A stretch of DNA of 64,000 nt from an uncultured Gammaproteobacteria bacterium (GCA_964344145.1 CAYFME010000008.1:1913-65912), one strand, 5' to 3'; positions 3,327-51,426 are shown, numbered from the stretch's first letter. Notes: generated by a model not told the origin, from the sequence alone. Made by a program: numbers and translations.

Positions 3327-5318
3327 CTAGAAGAGGCCCTGGAAGAACGGGACGAGGACTCCCATGACGATGGCGGCGGCCACGCCCACGAGACCTTCGC
3401 CGGCGATGCCGCCAGCGCCGATGGCTCCGGAGTAGTTCTCCATCCACGCCGGGCGCTTGACCTTGATGGTCAGGTAGACCATGGAGCCCAGGAACATGGA
3501 GAAGGAGTACATGTAGGGCACGATCATGGCCACGCCAAGGCCAATGGCCGAGGGCATCCACGCGCGCACCTTGGGCGACACGCTCTTCTCCACGATGGTG
3601 ATCAGCACGCCCAGGACGATGCCGACGATGAGAGCTGGCACGGCCATGGGGGGCAGGGCGCTCACGCCCTTGGCCATCATGGTGGCGAGTCCGGCCCAGG
3701 TGATGGCTGCCGGGGCGGGCCACATCTCGGAACCGATGGGGTGCGCCTGGATCAGGACCCAGAAGATCGCCGCGCAGAAGGGAGCGCCGATGAGTACGCC
3801 CATGAGCTGTGCGTAGACCTGCCGCTTGGGCGTGGCGCCCAGCAGCCAGCCGGTCTTCAGGTCCTGCATCATGTCGGCCGCCTCGGAGGCGCCACCAGCG
3901 GCCACGCCACCGGTGAGCAGGTTGGCGCTGGTGATGGAACCGACGCCCGCGGAGCTGCCGGTCTGCAGGGCGCCGAAGGCGATCTGCGTGACCGAGCCCA
4001 TGGTACCCACGGGGTTGATGTCCGTCTCGCCCGTCGCGCGCACGGCGATGACCGCGAGCATGAAGGACAGGGCGATAGCCAGGATGCCGAAGTACCACGG
4101 CACGCCGAAGCGGATCTGGAGCATGCCCATCACGCCGATGGAGGCGACGATGAGGCCGCCGACCCACTGCCAGGTGGGGACTTCCAGGTGGGCGATGGGC
4201 GACACGCCGCCACTGCGGCGGAACATGCTGCGGATGGCCTTGAGGATGATCTTCCACTGGTAGGCGGTCGCGGTGAGGCCCGCGGCGATCATCATGCCGA
4301 TGGCGGGCCACATGAGCCACTTGACCATGATGGAGTAGTAGCTCTGCGCCTGCACGTCCGCGAAGTACTTGCAGTTGTCCGCGAAGAAGGCGGCCTGCTG
4401 CTCAGTCGGCTCCGCGATGGCGAAGATGGCCTGGCAGTCGGCCACGACGGCGTCGGGGGTCATGCTCGTGGCGATGGTCACGTCGATACCCTGACTCACG
4501 AGCCAGGGCGTCAGGACGACCCAGGCGATGATGCCGGCCACGCCCAGCGAAGCGCCGATGCGCGGGCCGATCAGGAAGCCGGCGCCGAACATCATCGGCG
4601 AGACCGCGGCACCGACCGTGAGGTTGGCTAGCGGGATACCACCGACCTTCCAGCTCGCCGGGGCCATGACGTAGCTCGGGATGAACGCGGGCCAGCCCTG
4701 CTGGAACCAGGTGATCACGCCGGAGACGAGACCGGTGATGCCCAGAGCCTTGGCCTTGTTCATGGCCTGCGCACCCTTGGCGTGCATCGCCGTGATGGTC
4801 TCGGCGCAGGCGGTTCCGGTGGGGAAGCGCAGGCGGTCGATGACCAGGATCTGGCGGCGCAGCGGGATGGCGAAGAAGACGCCCAGGAAGCTCGTGAAGA
4901 ACACCCACAGCAGCACGTCCATGAAGGTCGGCGCCTGGCGGATGATGCCGTCGGCCGCGAGCAGGAAGAGCGCCGGGATGACGTTCACGATGTTGCCCAG
5001 CGACCCGGCCGCGCTCGCGAAGGTCTGCGTCGCGTTGTTCTCGAGCACCGAGTAGCTGCGCCCGAGGATCCGCATGATGGCGAAGCCCAGGATGACGGCG
5101 ATGAGCGAGCCTCCCTCACCCCAGCCGGTCTTCAGACCCATGTAGATGTTGAAGGCGATCATCAGCGCGCCCAGGCCGATCGAGACCAGGATGACCTGGA
5201 TCGTCAGCTCGGGGAGCTTGTCGCCCTTGTAGGTGTGGGTCAGCCAGTGACGTTCTGCCCGCTCGACTTCTTCTGCCGAGCGCGGTTGGACGTCAGCGGT
5301 AGCGCTGTCGTTCATCAT
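3327..5318 (-). CDS. OPT-family oligopeptide transporter (high-GC gene)
   Basis: About 660-aa polytopic membrane protein with OPT-superfamily-like TM pattern; 65% GC with GC3 bias; start MMNDS at 5318 chosen from GGGGG RBS-like context (alternative TTG at 5399). Confidence 0.7.
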   Translation of the reverse strand: MMNDSATADVQPRSAEEVERAERHWLTHTYKGDKLPELTIQVILVSIGLGALMIAFNIYMGLKTGWGEGGSLIAVILGFAIMRILGRSYSVLENNATQTFASAAGSLGNIVNVIPALFLLAADGIIRQAPTFMDVLLWVFFTSFLGVFFAIPLRRQILVIDRLRFPTGTACAETITAMHAKGAQAMNKAKALGITGLVSGVITWFQQGWPAFIPSYVMAPASWKVGGIPLANLTVGAAVSPMMFGAGFLIGPRIGASLGVAGIIAWVVLTPWLVSQGIDVTIATSMTPDAVVADCQAIFAIAEPTEQQAAFFADNCKYFADVQAQSYYSIMVKWLMWPAIGMMIAAGLTATAYQWKIILKAIRSMFRRSGGVSPIAHLEVPTWQWVGGLIVASIGVMGMLQIRFGVPWYFGILAIALSFMLAVIAVRATGETDINPVGTMGSVTQIAFGALQTGSSAGVGSITSANLLTGGVAAGGASEAADMMQDLKTGWLLGATPKRQVYAQLMGVLIGAPFCAAIFWVLIQAHPIGSEMWPAPAAITWAGLATMMAKGVSALPPMAVPALIVGIVLGVLITIVEKSVSPKVRAWMPSAIGLGVAMIVPYMYSFSMFLGSMVYLTIKVKRPAWMENYSGAIGAGGIAGEGLVGVAAAIVMGVLVPFFQGLF

Positions 5319-5455
5319 AACCCCCAGTGGGAGAGGAAAGGTGCTCTGTGGAAAGTTCCACATTGCTCGTTGTTTACCGGACTGAGGAGCTTTCGTCAAT
5401 CCATTGTTCCCCTGTCACACTTTCTTTCTTTGCGGCATAGTATAGGTAGAACGCT

Positions 5456-11360: not shown

Positions 11361-12227
11361 TCAGCTTCGGGAGAAGAGGGCGAGGCAGCGCTGCAGGCAG
11401 ATGTTGAGGTTGTGGGCCTGAGCCTCGCCAGCGGCGACGTTGTCACCGTGGTCGAGGACTTCTTCCATCCCGTTGGTGTGGAAGGCCAGAGCGATCGCCT
11501 GCCAGCCGTAGAGGTGCGCGATGCCCAACGACACGAGCAGACTCATGCCGATGGAGAGGCAGCCCTGACTCGCGCGCAGACGCTTGGTGAAGAGGCTCTC
11601 GACGTCGGTACCTCGCTCCAGGGCGTAGATGCCCGTGGCGACGGTCAGTCCATCGATGTCCTGCAGGGCGTCGCGCGCCGGCATGGTGAGCGTGCCCAGG
11701 TGGTCAGGGCAGATGACGGCCGAGGCCGAGCAGTGCTCGGTGAATGGCGTCTCCATGCCAGGGGCACGGTGGATCTGCTCGACCACGACGACGGCACCAG
11801 CGGGCGCACTGTCGTCATCGAGGCCACCGGCGCCGCAGGTTGTCAGCAGGTTCTTCACTCCCAGGTGGGCGAACATCTCGAACTGGTAGCGCATGGCGCG
11901 GTACACCTTGTCGCGACGCTTGGCGAAGGTGACGTCGTTGAGATGAACGCGACCGTCCAGGACGAAGACGCGCTTGCCGCCCACCGTCGCGATGCCCGCC
12001 CGCAGGGCGTGACCCTTCTTCTTGCGAACGGCGCGGAAGATCTTGAAGGTCTTGCGCAGGTCGCACGAGACCTCCAGCTCCACCAGCGCTCCCCAGCCGG
12101 TGCCCAGCACCACGAGCGTGTCGAGCTCTTCGTCCGGGCCGAGACCGAGCGCCTCACGCAGCTTGCGTGCCATCTTCGCCGACGCCTTCTTGAATCCCCG
12201 GTCCGGGGTCGGACGCTTGTTTTCCAT
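11361..12227 (-). CDS. Purine nucleoside phosphorylase / MTA phosphorylase family enzyme (high-GC gene)
   Basis: VVLGTGWG...GGKRVFVLDGRVHLNDVT...LLTTCGAGGL matches PNP-family motifs; start MENKR at 12227 with GGAGAG RBS. Confidence 0.75.
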   Translation of the reverse strand: MENKRPTPDRGFKKASAKMARKLREALGLGPDEELDTLVVLGTGWGALVELEVSCDLRKTFKIFRAVRKKKGHALRAGIATVGGKRVFVLDGRVHLNDVTFAKRRDKVYRAMRYQFEMFAHLGVKNLLTTCGAGGLDDDSAPAGAVVVVEQIHRAPGMETPFTEHCSASAVICPDHLGTLTMPARDALQDIDGLTVATGIYALERGTDVESLFTKRLRASQGCLSIGMSLLVSLGIAHLYGWQAIALAFHTNGMEEVLDHGDNVAAGEAQAHNLNICLQRCLALFSRS

Positions 12228-12303
12228 GATCTCTCCAGGAGGCTGGACGTTTTTTATCAAAAACAAACACACCGGTCAAAGCCGATGTGGTTGTTGCGGA
12301 AGT

Positions 12304-14603: not shown

Positions 14604-15227
14604 TTGTTTTGTATGCAAAGAATGATCCCTTTGTTTTTGATGGCGCTTTTGGTTGTTGGAGCTGGCTGCAGCGAACCTCAGGCGAATGACGATACGCTCG
14701 ATGCGTTGACTGAGCTTGGGACGGACATCGAAGAGATCGCCGATGAGGAGGATGAAGAGGAAGAGGGGGCGGAAGACGATGAGGAGGCGGATGAGGCCGA
14801 AGATGATGATCAAGTAGCAGAATCATTGCCAGTCGATGATGATGCTGACGACACAGACGTTGGCGAGGAGCCCGAGCTTGAGTCTGAGGAAGATGACGAT
14901 GCGGCCGAGCAAGAAGCGCAGGATCTTCCAGAAGAAGACGATGACGAAGAGAAGGACGAGTCGCTTTATGTCTCCATGGAGTCGGGAAATTTTTTCTTCA
15001 GTCCAAGCTCCATCGCCGCAGAGCCTGGTCAGACCGTTGTTATCACCATTGAGCAGAACGCTGGAACGCACACGCTTGTGATCGATGAGATTGGCTACAA
15101 GTCCGGCGTGAGTATTGGCGATGTTCTTACATTCACCGCACCAACCGATCCAGGATCATATGCCTACTACTGCGACGTTGGATCACATCGTGCACTTGGC
15201 ATGGAAGGGACGTTGATTGTGCAATAG
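14604..15227 (+). CDS. Cupredoxin (plastocyanin/azurin-like blue copper) lipoprotein with ~100-aa poly-acidic linker
   Basis: Lipobox LLVVGAGC; C-terminal type-1 copper ligand pattern YYCDVGSHRALGMEG (C..H....M); the linker is a D/E-rich run. Confidence 0.7.
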   Translation: MFCMQRMIPLFLMALLVVGAGCSEPQANDDTLDALTELGTDIEEIADEEDEEEEGAEDDEEADEAEDDDQVAESLPVDDDADDTDVGEEPELESEEDDDAAEQEAQDLPEEDDDEEKDESLYVSMESGNFFFSPSSIAAEPGQTVVITIEQNAGTHTLVIDEIGYKSGVSIGDVLTFTAPTDPGSYAYYCDVGSHRALGMEGTLIVQ

Positions 15228-15272
15228 CGTTTCAAAAAACGGGCTACAGGGTCCGTTTTTGAATTCTGTAGG

Positions 15273-15301
15273 TTGACAAAACCGCCAATTTATGCTATAT
15301 T
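15273..15301 (+). promoter_or_regulatory. Sigma70-like promoter (TTGACA-N17-TATATT) upstream of the DGR target gene
   Basis: Exact TTGACA at 15273-78, a 17-nt spacer and TATATT at 15296-301; follows a cupredoxin-gene terminator hairpin (15234-15260). Confidence 0.6.
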
Positions 15302-15446
15302 CACTGCCTGTTCCTTGTGATTTTTGGCTTTCTTGTTGTCTATTTTTCTAGGTAGACGGCAAGAAGGCCGGAAACAGATAGGTCTTCCCCTTTGCCGTGT
15401 TGGCGAGGGGTACGGCTTTCCCGAAAAGGGGAGGCAAGGATACAAC

Positions 15447-15923
15447 ATGGACACGCTGCTTTCCGCGGCCCACCTGCGTCGTGAGCTGGGCGAGGAGCTC
15501 TTCAAGGCTCTGGTGAGCTCTGACAACACCGGCAAGGTGCGCACGTTCGCCCAGAGCCTCGTCAACGCCGCCAGCGACCGGCTCCCCACCGAGCTGACCC
15601 TCGGCGATCGCACCTACGAGATCCTCGGCTTCCTCAAGCCTGGCGAGACCTCGGTCAAGGGTGACGTCATGGTCCAGCGCGCCAAGGAGATGAACGCCCA
15701 CCTCGGCAAGGAAGACGGCCAGTGGTTCCTGGACCACCAGGACGACATCCCTGAGAGTCTGCGCGGCAAGGTCGCCTTCGTCTTCACCGACTGGCGTTAC
15801 CCCGACGCCTCGCGCGACGTCTACTACGTCTTCTGGCACGACGCTTCCCGTCGCTGGTTCAGGCACTGGCACCACCTCCCCTCCCTGTGGCTTGACCTCG
15901 ACCGTCTTGTGCGTCGCAAGTAG
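15447..15923 (+). CDS. DGR variable (target) protein, 158 aa, variable repeat at extreme C-terminus
   Basis: ATG 15447 preceded by AAGGGGAGG RBS; 62% GC; last 43 codons form the VR matching the downstream TR; no signal peptide seen. Confidence 0.8.
   Translation: MDTLLSAAHLRRELGEELFKALVSSDNTGKVRTFAQSLVNAASDRLPTELTLGDRTYEILGFLKPGETSVKGDVMVQRAKEMNAHLGKEDGQWFLDHQDDIPESLRGKVAFVFTDWRYPDASRDVYYVFWHDASRRWFRHWHHLPSLWLDLDRLVRRK
15792..15920 (+). repeat. DGR variable repeat (VR), 129 bp
   Basis: Aligns gap-free to 16267-16395 with 15 mismatches; every mismatch position is an A in the other (TR) copy. Confidence 0.85.
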
Positions 15924-15984
15924 GCTCTTGGGTCCTGGGGTTCTTGGCACCTGTCTTGGCCCTCGCTCCCTTGGTCCTCTCCGT

Positions 15985-16029
15985 GGCCCCGCATCTTGCT
16001 TGCAAGGTGCGGGGCTTCGACGTTTTTTT
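15985..16029 (+). terminator. GC-rich hairpin plus T7 run downstream of the target gene (terminator and/or DGR VR-flanking stem-loop)
   Basis: GGCCCCGCA-tcttgcttgcaagg-TGCGGGGC followed by cttcgacgTTTTTTT. Confidence 0.6.
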
Positions 16030-16266
16030 ATGCTAAATTTACTTCGGACGGTAAACTTGCAAGGCTCGCGGCCATGGCTTCGAGCGGTTGAAATCCGGAC
16101 GCTGTGACACGCCGGAATATATCAGGCTACGGCTCGGTATAGAGTGCTGTCGCAGCCCCCCAAATGAATATACTTGGTGCGATGTGCTGGTGAGATCACT
16201 TCTCCAAATACGATTCAGCCCAGAGAAGATCGATGGGTGGTGGTGTAGATGGCGCATGGCATACAT

Positions 16267-16395
16267 TGGCGTAACCCCGACGCCTCGCGCGACGTCTACT
16301 ACGTCTACTGGCACGACGATTCCCGTCGCTGGATCAGGAACTGGAACAACCTCCACAACCAGTGGAATGACAACGACCGTCTTGTGCGTCGCAAG
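16267..16395 (+). repeat. DGR template repeat (TR), 129 bp
   Basis: Intergenic copy of the VR. It holds about 30 adenines, 15 of which differ in the VR. In the VR frame it encodes WRNPDASRDVYYVYWHDDSRRWIRNWNNLHNQWNDNDRLVRRK, with the adenines concentrated in AAC/AAT codons. The in-frame TAA where VR has TAC confirms it is non-coding. Confidence 0.85.
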
Positions 16396-16406
16396 TCTGT
16401 TCATTG

Positions 16407-16436
16407 CAAACACTCCCGCTGATTCGGGAGTGTTTG
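16407..16436. other. Perfect 12-bp stem-loop immediately 3' of the TR and abutting the avd stop codon
   Basis: CAAACACTCCCG-ctgatt-CGGGAGTGTTTG. Confidence 0.6.
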
Positions 16437-16437
16437 G

Positions 16438-16758
16438 TTATCTCGCGTGCTTCATCCAGCCACCGAGCATTTTTCCTATCTCCGCTAGTTGTTGAGAGAG
16501 TCGTGCGAATGCCTTGTGATCTACGAGCTTCATCTCCCAGGCGAGCTGCAGGAAGAATTTGAGCGCATCAAATTTCGCGGCTGCCTTCTCAAGAATTGAT
16601 CGCTTATCATGTTTGCTCGAGAATGAAGCCAGTAGGATGAGCTCAATCGTTTCCGTAAATAGGGAATCTATTTTTACTCCAATGGTGTAACGGGAAAGCC
16701 GTGGTAGGTTGGACAACGTTCCATGCCAACATTTATATGCATCGCTGAGTTTATGCAA
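16438..16758 (-). CDS. avd: DGR accessory variability determinant (Avd; four-helix-bundle / 23S-rRNA-IVS protein family)
   Basis: 106 aa; AYKCWHG...FDALKFFLQLAWEMKL...LAEIGKMLGGWM resembles Bordetella bAvd (ATKCYDQ...LAMLRFWLRFLAG...AEVGRILGSWI); TTG start at 16758; on the opposite strand to the TR and RT. Confidence 0.75.
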   Translation of the reverse strand: MHKLSDAYKCWHGTLSNLPRLSRYTIGVKIDSLFTETIELILLASFSSKHDKRSILEKAAAKFDALKFFLQLAWEMKLVDHKAFARLSQQLAEIGKMLGGWMKHAR

Positions 16759-16850
16759 AATCGTAACATCACCTCGGAGATTATCGGGGGGGGGGTCGCA
16801 AAAGAGGTCTGTTTTCGCATACGCTCGAGGAGATTGTTTCGTTTGATAAT

Positions 16851-17795
16851 GTGTTACTTGCCTGGTCGGAGTTTGTCAAAGGCAAACGATCGAAGCAGGA
16901 TGTGCAGGTCTTTTCCAGAGCGTTGATCGACAATATCGATGTGTTGCATTGGGAGTTAGCATCAGGATTGTATCGTCATGGCGGGTATCAACATTTTGTT
17001 ATTCATGATCCCAAGCGTCGGGATATTCATAAGGCCTCTGTCCGCGATCGTTTAGTGCATCACTGTGTACATAGAATGCTCTATCCCTATTTTGATCGTC
17101 GATTTATCGCAGATAGTTTTTCGTGCCGAACAGACAAAGGCACGCACCGAGCAATGGATCGCTTCCGTTCCATGGCCAACAAGGTGAGTCACAATCATAC
17201 GAGGACGTGCTGGGTACTGAAGATGGATATTCGTAAGTTTTTCGCGAGCATCAACCAAAACACATTGCTCCGTCAGCTTGACGGTTTTATTGTTGATACA
17301 CGGATTGTTTATTTGTTGAGAGAGATTATTTTCAGCTTTCATACAGTGCCCGGCTTTGGGCTCCCTCTTGGCAATCTCACATCACAGCTTTTCGTAAATG
17401 TGTACATGAACGAGTTCGATCAGTTCGTGAAACATGCGTTGGGTATCAAGTTCTATATTCGTTATGCGGATGACTTTGTAATCCTTTCGCGCGATCGTGA
17501 GCACCTGAATGAATTGATTCCCGAGATCGATGCGTTTTTGTTCGAAAGATTGCTCTTGCAACTTCATCCGGATAAGACGTTCATCAAGACGCTTGCATCC
17601 GGAGTGGATTTTTTGGGATGGGTTCATTTCCCTGATCATCGAGTCTTACGCCGCTCAAGCCGTCATCGCATGTTTCGCAAGTTGCGGGGGGATCCACGAG
17701 AGGAGGTTTATCAGTCGTATAGGGGTCTGTTAGCCCATGGTAATGGGGGAAAACTTCAGAGAAAGTTACTGGATGATTATTGGATGTTATCGTGA
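16851..17795 (+). CDS. DGR-type reverse transcriptase; annotated from first in-frame GTG but conserved N-terminus continues upstream to 16767
   Basis: RT motifs 1-7 include CRTDKGTHRAM, the DGR-diagnostic LPLGNLTSQLFVNVY (SQ in place of QG) and IRYADDFVILS (YADD box). It closely parallels Bordetella phage bRT. 42% GC. Confidence 0.9.
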   Translation: MLLAWSEFVKGKRSKQDVQVFSRALIDNIDVLHWELASGLYRHGGYQHFVIHDPKRRDIHKASVRDRLVHHCVHRMLYPYFDRRFIADSFSCRTDKGTHRAMDRFRSMANKVSHNHTRTCWVLKMDIRKFFASINQNTLLRQLDGFIVDTRIVYLLREIIFSFHTVPGFGLPLGNLTSQLFVNVYMNEFDQFVKHALGIKFYIRYADDFVILSRDREHLNELIPEIDAFLFERLLLQLHPDKTFIKTLASGVDFLGWVHFPDHRVLRRSSRHRMFRKLRGDPREEVYQSYRGLLAHGNGGKLQRKLLDDYWMLS

Positions 17796-34946: not shown

Positions 34947-35225
34947 ATGCCCGATGAAGATCTGGAAGGCCATAGGCGCGTCGAGGAGGGGATACGTGGG
35001 TTCGTTGCGTTGATGACGGATTACCCGAAGGAGGTAGAGGTCGTGGCGACGCCGGGAGAAGCCACCATGGTGATGATCCTCATCCGGGTCAATCAGCGTG
35101 ATCTCGGTCGCGTGATCGGCAAGAAGGGGAAGTGGCGAGAGGCTCTTCAGAAGCTGATCGAAAAGCCGATTTCTGGAGCGCGCGGTCACCGCTATCGCCT
35201 CGACGGTATTATCGCCCTCTCGTAG
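34947..35225 (+). CDS. Second KH-domain RNA-binding protein paralog (KhpA-like)
   Basis: ATG at 34947 with AAGAGGTG RBS; DLGRVIGKKGKWREALQKLI is a KH GxxG motif. Confidence 0.6.
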   Translation: MPDEDLEGHRRVEEGIRGFVALMTDYPKEVEVVATPGEATMVMILIRVNQRDLGRVIGKKGKWREALQKLIEKPISGARGHRYRLDGIIALS

Positions 35226-35398
35226 GGTCGTTACGTTGCGTAGGCTCGCCTTCTCAGGCGAGCCTTGGTGCATCCAATTTTTTTACCTAACCTTCGTCTT
35301 GTTTTGTACGTTTTTACTTGACAAACGGGGGGAAATTTGCGAAAGTCAAAAGGACAGGACATACGTCCTGACTCTTTCCAATCCGGAGGACTAACACC

Positions 35399-36070
35399 AT
35401 GCTGATGCTCATCACGATGATGCTGACGATCGGGACCGCGATGGCCCAGGAGCCCGCGTCCGTTCAGACCGACGAGATCGAAGAGACCGAGCAGACGGAT
35501 CGGCCCGTCCAGGTCGAGTCCGAGCCCGCGCCGGTCGTCGAGTCCACGGTGGCCGACTGCGAGGGCGTGACCCTCGCGACCTTCGAGACCGCCGACGAGA
35601 CCGCCGCCGCCCTGCTCATGGACCTGGAGACCGAGAAGCTTCTCACCCTGGAGCTCGACACGATCGCCAAGCTGATCTGTCTGGATGGTCGTCTGACGCC
35701 CTCGGCGTCGGCCTCGATCCACGGCATGACGGCGATGGCCTCGCTGGTCGATCCCCAGCGTGACGAGTCCCAGGTGCGCGCGGCGCTCTATGCCGCCGGT
35801 CTGGCCTCGGCGACCTACGAGCTGCCGAGCATCATCCCCCGCACGCACAAGCTGCGCACCATGCAGGCGGATGCCGCTGCCTACGCCAGCGCGATGGACA
35901 CCATGTCCGCCCCCGAGGGCTCTGTCCTCGTGGTCGACGGCGTGACCAGCCGCACTCGGCGCATCGGCGCCCCGGCAGTCGTGCAGATCCAGACGGACGG
36001 CGAGATCTCCTCGACCGTCTACCTCGCCCCGGCCGTCGCCTTCGACAGCGGAGGTGACGATGCCCAATAG
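35399..36070 (+). CDS. Secreted protein (hypothetical; high-GC), translationally coupled to downstream kinase
   Basis: Signal peptide MLMLITMMLTIGTAMAQEP; 65% GC; 3' end overlaps the kinase start. Confidence 0.55.
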   Translation: MLMLITMMLTIGTAMAQEPASVQTDEIEETEQTDRPVQVESEPAPVVESTVADCEGVTLATFETADETAAALLMDLETEKLLTLELDTIAKLICLDGRLTPSASASIHGMTAMASLVDPQRDESQVRAALYAAGLASATYELPSIIPRTHKLRTMQADAAAYASAMDTMSAPEGSVLVVDGVTSRTRRIGAPAVVQIQTDGEISSTVYLAPAVAFDSGGDDAQ

Positions 36071-37832
36071 TAGCCCACAACCACTAGATCCTGGAGGACC
36101 TATGTCGACGAGACCGTCGTCCGAGGCCCTCCAGCGTGAGGGTCTTGCTGCTGTCTACGATGACCTGGAGGTCATCGCCGCTGGTGGTGCAGGGATCGTC
36201 TTCTCTGGTGTCCACCGTGGTCTGCGCCGGAAGGTGGCAATCAAGCTGCTCCTTCCGGCCATGATGAAGTCTGTGCCGATGCGCGAACGCGCCCTGCGCG
36301 AAGCGCGAGCCATGGCCCAGGTCGAGCACCCCAACGTCGTTCGTGTCTACAACGCTGGGATCATCCAGCTCACGGGTGCGGACGTCGCACTGCTCACCGA
36401 GGGTCTCACCGCTCTGCGTATCGCGGCAGTCTTTCCGCAGAACGCCAAGACCGTGTTCATCGAGATGGAGTGGGTCGAGGGAGGTACGCTGCAGGACTAC
36501 ATCGCCAAGGGGCAGCCCTTGGTGCAGGCCCGGGCAGCGGCTATCTTGCTCGATTTGCTGAGCGCTCTGGATGCCGTCCACGCCAATGGGATCGTCCATC
36601 GCGACGTCAAGCCGGCCAACGTCATGCTCACCGAGGATGGCGATGTGAAGCTCACCGACTTTGGTCTGGTGAACTCGCAGGAGGCTGGTCTCACGCGCGT
36701 GGGCACCAAGATGGGAACGCCCGGCTACATGCCGCCGGAGCAGGATCGTGATGCCAAGTCGGCTGATCTCACGGCTGACCTGTACGCCGCGGCCGTGGCC
36801 TTCCACTGCCTGCTGCGTGGACGCGATCCGGTCGGAGCACACTGCCACGGCGTGCTCGCGCCGATGTTCTGCGATCTGGTGGAGGACCGGGAGCGCGATC
36901 CCGAGCGCCCGGAGCTTGCGAACTTCTGGCGTGACATCGGAGAGCCGCTCAGGGCCTTCATCATCCGCGCAACGCGTCGGGCGCCAGAAGACCGCTTCGA
37001 CAGCGCTGCGGAGATGGCCACGGCTCTGCGCGAGATCGAGAATGAGCTGTTGGTAACGCTACCTTCGCCTGAAACGCTGGTGGCCACCGAAGGTGTCGAC
37101 TCGCTGCTGGACGACGGACACACGCATCCCATCGAGCTTGGTCAGCTGCCGCTGGTCGATCTCGATGATGAGGACGACATCCTTCGACCTGCCTCTGACG
37201 ACGACCTACCCTGGGATCCGAACCCGACGCCGCGTCGCCTCGGTCGCTGGATCGCCGCAGCTCTCGCGCTGGTCCTGGTGATCGGTGTGGGGGCGTGGAG
37301 CTTCAACGGTCAGGGTGAGTCCGCTCCGCCAGCTGATGTCGCGTCGCTCAACCCCATCGAGCAGCCCGTACAGATGGTCGAGACGGTCGCGTCTCCTGAA
37401 CCCGGGCCCAGCACGGAGCTCGCTGCTGCCCTGGTGCAGCCTGAGCCCGAAGTCGAGCCCGTCGGGTCATCCGACCCGACGGCCCGGTCGAATGACCGGG
37501 CTGAGCCCGAAGTCGAGCGAGCCGTGAAACGAACGGTTCCAGTGCGCGCCAAGACCGCAGTGGTTGAGGTCGTCGAACTGGAACCCGAGCCCGAGATCGA
37601 AGCGCCCCCGCGCATCACGGTCTCCGGCGACGCCAAGGCCGTCTGGCTCTCGCAACGTGGCACCTTCCACCAGCTTCCTGCGGATGTCCCGCCTGGTACC
37701 TACCGCCTGTTCGTCCAGTACGAAGGTGGTGAGCGCAAGCAGGCCCTCGATGGGTTCATCGAGGTGACTGACGGACCGGCAACGGTCCTGTGCAGCTCCC
37801 AGGCTGATGTCTGCAAGTGGCGCCCGATGTGA
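36060..37832 (+). CDS. Hanks-type Ser/Thr protein kinase with single TM and extracytoplasmic C-terminal domain
   Basis: G-loop AAGGAGIVFSG, VAIK, catalytic loop HRDVKPANVML, DFG, GTPGYMPPE; TM RWIAAALALVLVIGVGAW; start could also be GTG 36054 or ATG about 36102. Confidence 0.85.
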   Translation: MPNSSPQPLDPGGPMSTRPSSEALQREGLAAVYDDLEVIAAGGAGIVFSGVHRGLRRKVAIKLLLPAMMKSVPMRERALREARAMAQVEHPNVVRVYNAGIIQLTGADVALLTEGLTALRIAAVFPQNAKTVFIEMEWVEGGTLQDYIAKGQPLVQARAAAILLDLLSALDAVHANGIVHRDVKPANVMLTEDGDVKLTDFGLVNSQEAGLTRVGTKMGTPGYMPPEQDRDAKSADLTADLYAAAVAFHCLLRGRDPVGAHCHGVLAPMFCDLVEDRERDPERPELANFWRDIGEPLRAFIIRATRRAPEDRFDSAAEMATALREIENELLVTLPSPETLVATEGVDSLLDDGHTHPIELGQLPLVDLDDEDDILRPASDDDLPWDPNPTPRRLGRWIAAALALVLVIGVGAWSFNGQGESAPPADVASLNPIEQPVQMVETVASPEPGPSTELAAALVQPEPEVEPVGSSDPTARSNDRAEPEVERAVKRTVPVRAKTAVVEVVELEPEPEIEAPPRITVSGDAKAVWLSQRGTFHQLPADVPPGTYRLFVQYEGGERKQALDGFIEVTDGPATVLCSSQADVCKWRPM

Positions 37833-37936
37833 TCTCAAGTGCCCCGCCCCCGGAACTCCGGGCGGCGGGGCATCGTGCGTGTGGATGCACGACACCCACC
37901 CGGAGTCCCCAGGTGGGTGCTTGTCGTCGTAGACCG

Positions 37937-49704: not shown

Positions 49705-51150
49705 CTAGTGGCCGAAGCGGCGCACCGAGAGGGTGCCGTAGCCGATGTGGCGGACGGTCACGTAGCCGAAGCGGCCGGCGTAGACGACGTCCTTCTTCTC
49801 GACGTTGCCGCAGAGTCCACCTTGCGTGATCTGTCGGTTGATCTCGCGACCGTCGGCCGTGGGATCGATGACGAACAGGAGCGTGCCGCGCGCGTCCCAG
49901 TGCTCGAAGGCGAGGCGGTTGTGGCACTTGGCCGGGCGGATGGCGTTGTTGACGTCGTGCAGAGCCACGCGCACCGTGAGCCACTGTTCGAAGTCGTGCC
50001 GCTGACCGTCGCGATCGAAGATCATCAGCTCGTTGTCCAGGCGCTCGTCGCCGCCACGCTCGGTGTAGGCGACCAGGTGCGTGTTGCCGAAGACGAAGAG
50101 CTCGCGCACGACGCAGTCTTCGTACCAGTCCGTCGCCCAGTCGCTGCCGGGCGAGACCAAGCGCCAGCGAGAGACGTTGCCGCCCTGGAATTCCTCCTCG
50201 ACGACGATGTCTCGCTCGCCCATGCGGGTCGCCTTGAGCATCGCGAACTGGAAGGTGTCACCGCGGGCGACGACTTCGGTGGCCGCCGGGATTCCCCAGT
50301 AGCGCCAGCGCAGGATCTCCGGAATGCCGTCGTCCATGCGGTGCTCGAGGAAGGTCATCTCGCCGTCGTGGTGGACACGGATGCTCGGAAGGATGGGCTG
50401 GTGTACCTCGTCGGTGATGCGTGATCCCCAGCGCAGGCGTCCGACGCTGGAACGGTAGCGCGTACCCATCAGCCAGAGGGGCTTGTTGTAGAAGTGACCG
50501 ATGCAGCAGACCTCTACGCCATCGGGCGTACGGTCCATGGACATGAGCTGTCCGCCAGAGGCGATCTTGACGTGGATCGCATGCCAGTCCATGCGTTCGT
50601 CGCTGGGCGGGCAGGGCAAGACGAAGGACTCGACACCCTCTGCGCGCCAGTGGACAAGGGGGCTGTCCTCCAGTCGACGAGAGAACTCGCGGAGCTCTTC
50701 CTCTTCGAACTCACCTCCGTCTCGGTTGGCGATCACCGCCTCGCCCGCGCCGTAGCGCAAGCGCAGGCTCTCGCCCTTCTCGGCGATGACCCAGAAGAGC
50801 AGGGTGAGGTTGCCCAGGGCGTCGAACTCCATGCGTTCGATCCATCCTTCATCGCGCTCGCCGAAGACCTCCTTCCACGACGTCGGATCGAAGAGGGTGC
50901 CCAGCAGCACCACCGTGGAGTTACCTCCGCTGTCGCGCCGACCCGCCACGGCGATCTTTCCGGTGGGCGAGATCTGGATGTCGTTGATGGTCTGCAGCGG
51001 GCACTCGAAGCGGCCGACCTCGCCGCGCTCGTAGTCGAGCTCGGTGGGGGCGCCCTGCGCGGCCTTGATGGCGCGCGCGACGTCCTCCTTGCTGCAGTCT
51101 CCCTTGCCGACGGTGGTCATCAGCTTCTCGTAGAGTCCTTTCCAGGACAT
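49705..51150 (-). CDS. Hypothetical protein (481 aa; 63% GC)
   Basis: ATG 51150; no signal peptide; no family recognised. Confidence 0.5.
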   Translation of the reverse strand: MSWKGLYEKLMTTVGKGDCSKEDVARAIKAAQGAPTELDYERGEVGRFECPLQTINDIQISPTGKIAVAGRRDSGGNSTVVLLGTLFDPTSWKEVFGERDEGWIERMEFDALGNLTLLFWVIAEKGESLRLRYGAGEAVIANRDGGEFEEEELREFSRRLEDSPLVHWRAEGVESFVLPCPPSDERMDWHAIHVKIASGGQLMSMDRTPDGVEVCCIGHFYNKPLWLMGTRYRSSVGRLRWGSRITDEVHQPILPSIRVHHDGEMTFLEHRMDDGIPEILRWRYWGIPAATEVVARGDTFQFAMLKATRMGERDIVVEEEFQGGNVSRWRLVSPGSDWATDWYEDCVVRELFVFGNTHLVAYTERGGDERLDNELMIFDRDGQRHDFEQWLTVRVALHDVNNAIRPAKCHNRLAFEHWDARGTLLFVIDPTADGREINRQITQGGLCGNVEKKDVVYAGRFGYVTVRHIGYGTLSVRRFGH

Positions 51151-51426
51151 GGCTGTTCTCGTTGTCAGTGTCGAACGAGCAGGATCCGAACGCCCAGGTA
51201 TCATTACCTGAAACGCCCTTGGCTCCTCGCCGACGTACGTGCCGCCTGCCTGCCGGAAGGCTGGCGTGAGCGACACGGTAAGTTTGCATGAAAATATAGA
51301 TCTGTCAATGCTAACCACCCCTAACCCCTCCTTGAAAAGGAGGGGGACCGGAGTAACGAAAAACACGACTCATTTGAGTCGCGTTTTTCTCCGCGGGCAT
51401 CTGCTCGACATCCGCGAACATCTATA

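Follow-up and report, generated by a model that had tools for sequence, protein, structure and literature searches.

A stripped-down variable protein, predicted to adopt the C-type lectin fold, in a diversity-generating retroelement of apparent CPR type

The diversity-generating retroelement (DGR) considered here lies in a 64,000-nucleotide (nt) stretch of DNA from an uncultured Gammaproteobacteria bacterium (GCA_964344145.1, CAYFME010000008.1:1913-65912; hereafter, the window), and the question we address is what kind of protein this element diversifies. Its target gene (15447-15923, plus strand) encodes a protein of 158 amino acids (aa) that an earlier note, made from the sequence alone, had described as an atypical DGR target and possibly a novel ligand-binding scaffold. 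We arrive at a different conclusion. The locus is a genuine, complete DGR, with adenine-specific differences between a variable repeat (VR) and a template repeat (TR), an Avd accessory protein and a reverse transcriptase (RT). Very probably, this DGR belongs to the type that is standard in bacteria of the candidate phyla radiation (CPR; Patescibacteria), and the target is an uncharacterised variable protein of the C-type lectin (CLec) fold. Structural modelling further makes us confident that the protein consists of a single CLec domain with a three-helix N-terminal extension, that is, a minimal version of the usual ligand-binding scaffold of DGRs. Within its own DGR lineage, a target of this kind is common.

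The retroelement and the predicted fold of its target

The locus is identified as a DGR because the differences between its two repeats are confined to adenines of the TR. The VR (15792-15921, plus strand) spans codons 116-158 of the target gene along with the first base of the stop codon, and the TR (16267-16396, plus strand) contains 30 adenines and 7 AAY codons. When aligned over 130 nt in an ungapped register, the repeats show 15 mismatches, each of which coincides with a TR adenine, so that 15 of the 30 adenines are changed and no mismatch falls on any other base; all 15 affect codon positions 1 or 2 of the target open reading frame. When the adenines are written as N, the 32-nt core pattern of the repeat pair has two occurrences in the window, compared with zero expected. 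In agreement with the earlier note, which had placed the VR at the end of the gene, the two repeats remain identical to the end of the final sense codon, AAG, and into the stop codon TAG, of which they share the T. No VR base beyond 15898 is substituted, the next 23 nt (15899-15921) are the same in VR and TR, and the flanks diverge directly thereafter. For comparison with the IMH/IMH* (initiation of mutagenic homing) elements and the associated hairpin of Bordetella phage BPP-1, a strong hairpin is located ~60 nt 3' of the VR; a G/C run of 14, as in BPP-1, is not found 3' of the VR, and an array of CTTGG units, to which we return below, occupies that place.

The two protein components are encoded nearby. 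The product of the avd gene (16438-16758, minus strand; 106 aa) matches PF22296 (bAvd, E 5.9e-14), phrog_3206 (E 1.2e-17) and NF033474 (E 8.8e-20, at 71 bits, which is under the 80-bit cut-off), whereas the RT (16851-17795, plus strand; 314 aa) matches RVT_1 (E 4.6e-24) and phrog_1423 (E 8e-99); the two genes diverge from the interval 16759-16850. DGR-type RTs are defined by an (I/L/V)GxxxSQ motif along with the YxDD catalytic box, and LGNLTSQ and YADD are visible in the sequence of this RT. Given the adenine-confined mismatches and the adjacent avd and RT genes, the earlier note was right to consider the protein a DGR target. The DGR has apparently been active in the recent past and may still be so: ongoing diversification has indirect support in the lack of mismatches outside the TR adenines and in two VRs of a single MAG (metagenome-assembled genome; L007 and L016, see below) that differ only at scattered VR sites.

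The target protein itself has no cysteines, and its highest 19-residue Kyte-Doolittle hydropathy is 0.36; a hydropathy scan of the 158 aa detected neither a signal peptide nor a membrane segment, as the earlier note had stated. A longer N-terminus is excluded because in-frame stop codons occur close upstream, 12-250 nt 5' of the start codon, in homologues. An upstream TTG start at 15324, which would add a signal peptide, was considered and rejected, as this region is a conserved non-coding leader with in-frame stops in homologues. Searches of Pfam (E ≤ 1), NCBIfam, PHROGs and PDB sequences yielded no significant match to the target (the best was 3jvo_A, E 0.071), and neither CLec chains nor chains of the formylglycine-generating enzyme (FGE) subclass matched the family profile among PDB sequences at E ≤ 10. 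The target does not carry the sequence signature of the FGE subclass or that of DUF1566 (Pfam), and similarity to the variable proteins Mtd and TvpA was not detected in the Pfam and PDB-sequence searches.

So what fold could such a protein adopt? The AlphaFold model, which was built from a 32-sequence alignment and has a mean predicted local distance difference test score (pLDDT) of 94.7, contains three N-terminal helices within residues 3-43 followed by a predicted CLec domain (residues ~45-158). The elements of this domain are strands 49-52, 55-60 and 69-71, helices 72-81 and 88-96, and C-terminal strands 110-118, 121-131, 136-143, 147-149 and 152-157. The order after the helical N-terminus, strand-strand-strand-helix-helix-five strands, is the CLec topology with no inserts; the proteins set beside it include CLEC-2, PLA2R CTLD7, NKG2A, Ly49 and the mannose receptor. 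The best structural matches, namely InvE/invasin D5, the Bd2740 fibre tip, CD72 and CLEC-2 (85-112 aligned residues, root-mean-square deviation 2.9-4.0 Å), have domains of similar size (~110 residues) and are 4-10% identical to the target. A Foldseek search of the PDB gave a weak best match, 8oks_B (E 0.027), and a search against viral structures nothing meaningful. With the animal-type C-type lectins (Lectin_C) only the fold is shared: the target has no disulfides, no match to Lectin_C and, on inspection of the sequence, no Ca2+-binding or sugar-binding motifs.

The pattern of diversification can be projected onto this model. The substituted codons, 118-151, fall in strands 110-118, 121-131, 136-143 and 147-149 along with the connecting loops, and the closing strand, 152-157, corresponds to the 3' end of the VR, which is invariant. 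In all, TR adenines occur in ~21 codons that correspond to the last four variable strands and loops and, as calculated from the TR codons, could give rise to ~3 x 10^16 protein variants. Across 74 family members, entropy is 2.44 bits at the codons that have a TR adenine at position 1 or 2 versus 0.94 bits at the others (p = 4e-6), and the tryptophans and the terminal RVLRRK hardly vary.

Two alternatives bear directly on the nature of the protein. The view that the target is a new, non-lectin minimal scaffold for ligand binding draws on the lack of matches in Pfam, NCBIfam, PHROGs and PDB sequences, on a VR that does not display the usual sequence signature and on structural scores that are moderate only. 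Nevertheless, the structure prediction, which was the check that the earlier note had itself asked for, yields a CLec fold, the very outcome that the note had named as refuting its proposal, and the novel scaffold is for this reason largely refuted; we consider it highly improbable. The other alternative has to do with location: the target could be a diversified receptor in the cytoplasm that senses, for example, molecules of a phage or of a host, rather than a surface adhesin. This is a serious possibility, even if we stop short of favouring it. The protein has no signal peptide, membrane segment or cysteine and no room for a longer N-terminus; Roux et al. 2021 allow for CPR targets that are genuinely not membrane-bound (PMC8144416); and tandem, soluble, multi-module versions of the protein exist. 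However, a missing recognisable signal is no proof of location, especially in the poorly studied CPR cells, neither partner domains nor signalling genes are linked to the target, and the three N-terminal helices could serve in docking or export. As for the reading that we prefer, a diversified CLec protein of a CPR-type DGR, what weighs against it is that examination of the flanking genes revealed no partner and no conserved neighbourhood for the family; a ligand, a cellular location and present-day variation of the VR are presumed.

Comparison with known targets and retroelements

The stripped-down appearance of the window target has precedents. Its predicted topology of strands, two helices and an antiparallel sheet that a last strand closes agrees with that of the known CLec-fold DGR variable proteins Mtd, TvpA, AvpA and TaqVP. 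AvpA from Nanoarchaeota (Handa et al. 2016, PMC5006420) likewise is a stand-alone CLec fold of monomeric size, for which sequence similarity to Mtd and TvpA is not detectable either (PMC5006420); the invariant end of its VR encodes the last strand, and it has ~12 or more variable residues, again as in the window target. Encoding of the last strand by the invariant VR end is common to Mtd, TvpA and AvpA (Handa et al., PMC5006420). In other respects, the two larger proteins are unlike the window target: Mtd (381 aa) and TvpA (~330 aa) belong to the FGE subclass and possess inserts and large N-terminal domains, Mtd being the trimeric tail-fibre tip of Bordetella phage BPP-1 and TvpA a lipoprotein of Treponema denticola.

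How unusual, then, is this target among those of DGRs at large? The length of known DGR targets varies between 44 and 2697 aa, a single fold making up the smallest of them, and several VR classes of CPR have no assigned fold (Wu et al. 2018, PMC5758913). Targets of the CPR clade typically are without a recognisable membrane segment, signal peptide or conserved domain, and the VR domains of CPR were predicted to be new CLec variants (Roux et al. 2021, PMC8144416). A C-terminal VR, as in Mtd and TvpA, is the normal arrangement (PMC5006420; PMC8144416). Of the architectures defined by Wu et al. 2018, B3, in which the order is TR-(avd)-RT and avd is reversed, accounts for 90% of their CPR DGRs (PMC5758913). 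When the CPR (Patescibacteria) DGRs (clade 2 of Roux; B3 and VR classes UVR1-6 of Wu) are set beside the window DGR, both have the TR-(avd)-RT order with the reversed avd, and both have small targets that contain a C-terminal VR and no membrane segment, signal peptide or Pfam domain. The published elements come from groundwater and aquatic CPR hosts and do not differ from the window DGR in any essential way.

The relatives of the window RT, of which there are more than 500 in metagenomes, can be examined in the same light. Similarity to the RT (57-64% identity) served to collect 80 metagenomic loci (L024-L103). Wherever upstream DNA is preserved in loci of this RT lineage, the (avd)/RT pair is divergent, and the order TR-(avd)-RT with a reversed avd is present in the window and in all loci that retain avd. 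Adenine-biased VR/TR pairs with the same order and spacing as here were found in 51 of the 85 loci analysed (the 80 RT loci, 4 loci of the target family and the window itself). The targets in the RT-lineage loci mostly have 115-240 aa, and at least 31 of the 52 that could be extracted link to the window protein by single linkage of BLASTP matches, most of the singletons being wrong-frame or truncated target sequences. The C-terminal VR, the size, the lack of a signal and the contrast in guanine-plus-cytosine (GC) content, on account of which the earlier note had called the target atypical, are ordinary features, the GC contrast being shared across the related DGR loci examined, and that description has to be abandoned. 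A fold assignment, a leader RNA or a CTTGG array was not mentioned in the CPR DGR literature that we searched, which did not include Paul et al. 2017 (PMC5436926) or the supplement of Wu et al.

The target module, the CTTGG array and the template RNA

The target gene is preceded by a sigma-70-type promoter, TTGACA-17-TATATT with an upstream TG (15273-15301, plus strand), which agrees with the consensus at 11/12 positions and is the sole such site in 15100-17000. Both this promoter and the ribosome-binding site (GGAGG and AAGGA 5' of the ATG) had been correctly noticed before. The interval between promoter and start codon is a conserved 5' leader (15302-15446, plus strand) with stem-loops that include the ribosome-binding region. 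Long near-identical blocks of this leader, AAGAAGGCTGG...CTTCCTCTTTGCC...GGCGAGGAG, recur in 16 family loci in which the proteins share only ~55% identity. Compensatory changes affect 7 of the 20 predicted pairs, and support for the structure is weak; the leader may regulate translation. At the other end of the gene, a terminator, namely a G+C-rich hairpin with a T run (15982-16029, plus strand; -30 kcal/mol, z -6.45), closes the unit, and most of the 51 loci likewise display a hairpin with T-rich sequence behind it. This hairpin and the one that is located 3' of the TR were found by folding; a simple terminator scan reported neither.

Directly after the stop codon, and ahead of most of the terminator, runs the array (15924-15985, plus strand), which consists of ~8-nt units ending in CTTGG, CTGGG or CTCGC. 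The array was characterised by counting motifs against shuffled sequences; Tandem Repeats Finder did not report it. The unit consensus is RMYCTTGG, the commonest spacing 8 nt and the median number of strictly spaced copies per locus 3 (range 0-9). Such an array follows nearly every VR-bearing gene in several target families (L001-L023 and the 51 RT-lineage loci). Within 110 nt after the 51 VRs, CYYGG occurs 115 times versus 29 +/- 5 in shuffles, whereas after the TRs, where the array is absent, it occurs 12 times versus 21.6 expected. The stretch folds no better than shuffles (z -0.41). The array is a candidate for a VR-side recognition element.

Beyond the terminator, the TR appears to form a separate transcription unit that is made up of a promoter, a leader, the TR, the CTGTTCATT motif and a hairpin. 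The promoter, an extended -10 element TGcTAAATT (16031-16039, plus strand), was inferred by sequence comparison: in most of the related loci, TGnTATAAT stands at this place and is followed by a conserved start, GGnAGTA(A/G)(A/G)CGAA. The CTGTTCATT motif (16397-16405, plus strand) is conserved directly 3' of the TR, and the hairpin that ends the TR RNA (16407-16418/16425-16436, plus strand; -20.4 kcal/mol, z -5.1) lies tail to tail with avd. In related loci, hairpins of differing sequence can be seen by eye 3' of the TR; RNAalifold applied to this flank gave no consensus structure, the hairpins being misaligned.

The conserved leader 5' of the TR (16046-16266, plus strand; ~220 nt) is a structured RNA, 33 of the 39 predicted pairs over its full length showing compensatory changes. 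Its 3' part (16158-16266) is a three-way junction with helices 16177-16188/16251-16262, 16192-16195/16201-16204 and 16218-16222/16234-16238, and the nearly invariant, single-stranded AUACUUGG (16170-16177) marks the 5' edge of the junction. When the junction was tested, as a structure that we specified, on 44 sequences with 500 shuffles, 95.5% of cells were paired versus 71% in shuffles and 34-48% with the partners slid; double changes occurred in 260 cells versus 78 +/- 9 in shuffles, and none of the 500 shuffles reached as high a value. A profile of the junction has one hit in the window, at 16158-16266. Of the 80 RT-lineage loci, 63 are hit as well, in every case on the strand that carries the RT, and related loci have a single copy for each DGR. 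Among the Rfam families, including RT-1 to RT-19 and the group II intron domains, there is no match to the RNA flanking the TR (15200-17000, E ≤ 1); the only matches in this interval are three chance ones to microRNAs, located in the 5' leader of the target, and over the whole window Rfam identifies tRNAs only. The resemblance of AUACUUGG to the array unit suggests, at the level of sequence, that the two may have a common reader.

According to a preprint (bioRxiv 10.1101/2023.10.23.563531), a DGR template requires RNA flanks on both sides for cDNA synthesis; in the window, too, conserved RNA flanks the TR, as do the RNA elements of the BPP-1 DGR (avd-proximal segment, spacer Sp). What sets the window apart from these elements and from RT-10 of Rfam (Weinberg et al. 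2017, PMC5737381) is that its large structured element stands 5' of the TR and that the TR RNA apparently is a unit of its own, with its own promoter and closing hairpin.

Composition, isolated copies and target recognition

The GC content of the target gene is 65.0% (88.7% at third codon positions, GC3) against 45.7% in the RT gene, 46.4% in avd and 55.4% in the whole window, so that the values in the earlier note (62, 42 and 50% for target, RT and backbone) were approximately right. The same contrast is seen in all 22 family loci, in which the gene has 50-69% GC, with GC3 up to 96%, and the flanks have 30-51%; the third-position A content is 1-6% in most of these loci. Overall, target genes exceed their flanks, their own RT and their own avd by 15-30 GC points, and the GC-rich block begins ~50 nt 5' of the start codon and reaches ~100 nt past the stop. 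Targets of other families in the RT lineage average 58% GC versus 43% for the RT region, which 33 of 49 targets exceed by more than 10 points (GC3 values of wrong-frame targets, such as L015, L017, L043 and L066, were disregarded here). The excess might stem from avoidance of adenine in target transcripts or from some demand of homing, but both are guesses. As a separate matter, the window is a compositional mosaic in which islands of 62-68% GC (1-1000, 3327-5399, 11361-12272, 35000-40000, 42000-44000, 49705-51366 and 59341-61012) are set in a backbone of ~52% GC; the island genes include those for an OPT oligopeptide transporter, a PNP_UDP_1 phosphorylase, a Ser/Thr protein kinase and a GGDEF protein, and the islands were probably acquired horizontally.

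The target belongs to a large, unnamed, cellular CPR family that comprises DGR-adjacent, isolated and tandem multi-module copies. In a 90%-clustered collection, we found 86 homologues, mostly of 150-160 aa and from Patescibacteria or Magasanikbacteria metagenome-assembled genomes (MAGs), and in a 50%-clustered library 694 cluster representatives match the target at E ≤ 0.001; the conserved core corresponds to residues ~42-158. No relatives were found in a viral contig collection. In P0087 (517 aa), P0089, P0092, P0004 and P0088, 2-4 CLec modules of ~115 aa are arranged in tandem, each ending in RVLRRK or a similar sequence. Among the family loci (L001-L023, found with a 7-sequence alignment, and the window), a TR or leader RNA lies beside the target in six: the window, L004, L013, L015, L016 and L017. 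In L022, the start of the leader is followed by the contig end, and in 12 loci with enough flanking DNA, TR, avd and RT are absent within ~6 kb. In most of the isolated copies, the VR end is still invariant, the composition GC-rich and the array present downstream. One of the 12 loci is L001 (6001-6462), in which the target gene, equipped with a leader, array and terminator of its own, stands between the genes for the small (Oxidored_q6) and large (NiFeSe_Hases) subunits of a NiFe hydrogenase, a setting which suggests that the target module inserts as a unit. The copy of L002, another of the 12, adjoins a P-type ATPase gene. At the DGR-bearing contig end of L004 (1-2629), Zot-like and REP_ORF2-G2P (rolling-circle replication) genes are found a few kb upstream of the target, which hints at a filamentous-phage-like or plasmid-like neighbour. 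The MAGs of L006-L010, L016, L019 and L023 are labelled Gammaproteobacteria, yet the contigs are very AT-rich and carry the CPR-type family (in L016, with the TR leader); these labels look doubtful.

Other DGRs are known to diversify remote targets in trans (Wu et al. 2018, PMC5758913), and a pair of loci from one MAG, CAZTIC01, argues for it in this family. L007 (6001-6465) and L016 (5475-5837) are identical over ~190 nt before the VR and near-identical in their 3' flanks (one 3-nt indel and a few substitutions), but show ~19 scattered differences inside the VR, and L016, but not L007, is followed by a TR leader. Because the two are so alike in the flanks and differ inside the VR, remote copies of this kind are probably diversified in trans; along with a 45-nt leader remnant in L008 (6722-6766), which has no TR, avd or RT, the pair suggests both targeting in trans and decay of DGRs. 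The earlier note had held that its view would fall if homologues lacked associated DGRs. This came true in one half, in that most homologues have no adjacent DGR, but not in the other, as they bear the marks of diversification in trans.

The composition of the targets and the existence of isolated copies could each be given a simpler explanation. For the former, this would be a recent horizontal transfer from a GC-rich donor and nothing else, an idea that can point to other window genes of 64-68% GC (the OPT transporter, the PNP-family gene, the Ser/Thr kinase and the GGDEF gene) and to the interpretation of deviant GC content of DGRs as a sign of transfer by Wu et al. 2018 (PMC5758913). For this single locus, transfer is a reasonable starting idea. 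It fails to explain the wider pattern, though, because the excess holds in 22 of 22 family loci, at a protein identity of no more than 45-63%, and extends to further target families of this RT lineage, and because the adjacent RT and avd genes are not GC-rich. Furthermore, L014 and L022, which are among the least GC-rich copies, look partly decayed, even if L007, which is poorer in GC as well, appears to be a remote target that is active. We therefore rate this explanation as improbable. For the latter, the copies without a neighbouring DGR might be ordinary, non-diversified paralogues, the basic function of the family being independent of DGRs. The 12 loci that have no TR, avd or RT within ~6 kb are in line with this possibility, and so are the few CTTGG units of L014, L020, L021 and L023 and the altered C-terminal ends of L014 and L023. 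Yet array, GC-rich composition and invariant VR end persist in most isolated copies, the substitutions in their variable columns are those expected from adenine mutagenesis, the differences between L007 and its DGR-adjacent counterpart in the same MAG are confined to the VR, and L008 retains its remnant of leader RNA, all of which makes non-diversified paralogues unlikely.

If the isolated copies are diversified in trans, how would the DGR recognise them? The layout of the locus is that of a target gene followed by the CTTGG array and terminator, then by the leader/TR/hairpin unit, the reversed avd and the RT gene. By analogy with the known DGR pathway, RT and Avd would copy the TR RNA into cDNA with misincorporation opposite adenines, and the cDNA would take the place of the VR, with which the target gene ends. 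Each target module would be self-contained, having its own promoter, conserved leader, coding region, array and terminator. To this, we add a speculation that we regard as rather doubtful, namely that this CPR DGR lineage recognises its targets through a cis element, the RMYCTTGG array in single-stranded form, which stands directly behind each VR but never behind the TR, echoes the AUACUUGG of the three-way junction and would be read by a particle of RT, Avd and RNA. If this were true, reading of the array by such a particle would explain how dispersed GC-rich modules come to be diversified in trans, and the signal-less CLec proteins would constitute a family of soluble, possibly intracellular, diversified receptors.

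The value of the present finding lies in a correction: a target that looks exotic at the level of sequence has, by prediction, the ordinary lectin fold reduced to the core. The prediction supports the published expectation that the unannotated CPR targets are new CLec variants, and a compact, cysteine-free, diversifiable domain of ~115 residues might serve as a scaffold for engineering. The side observations may matter more than the corrected fold, given that the choice of target DNA by DGRs is still poorly understood. Together with the array, the leader RNA and the isolated copies, the GC-rich target modules, whose GC excess persists in AT-rich genomes, may provide handles on target recognition. 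In particular, the VR-specific array and the structured leader RNA are testable candidates for roles in target recognition and RNA handling in the largest environmental clade of DGRs.
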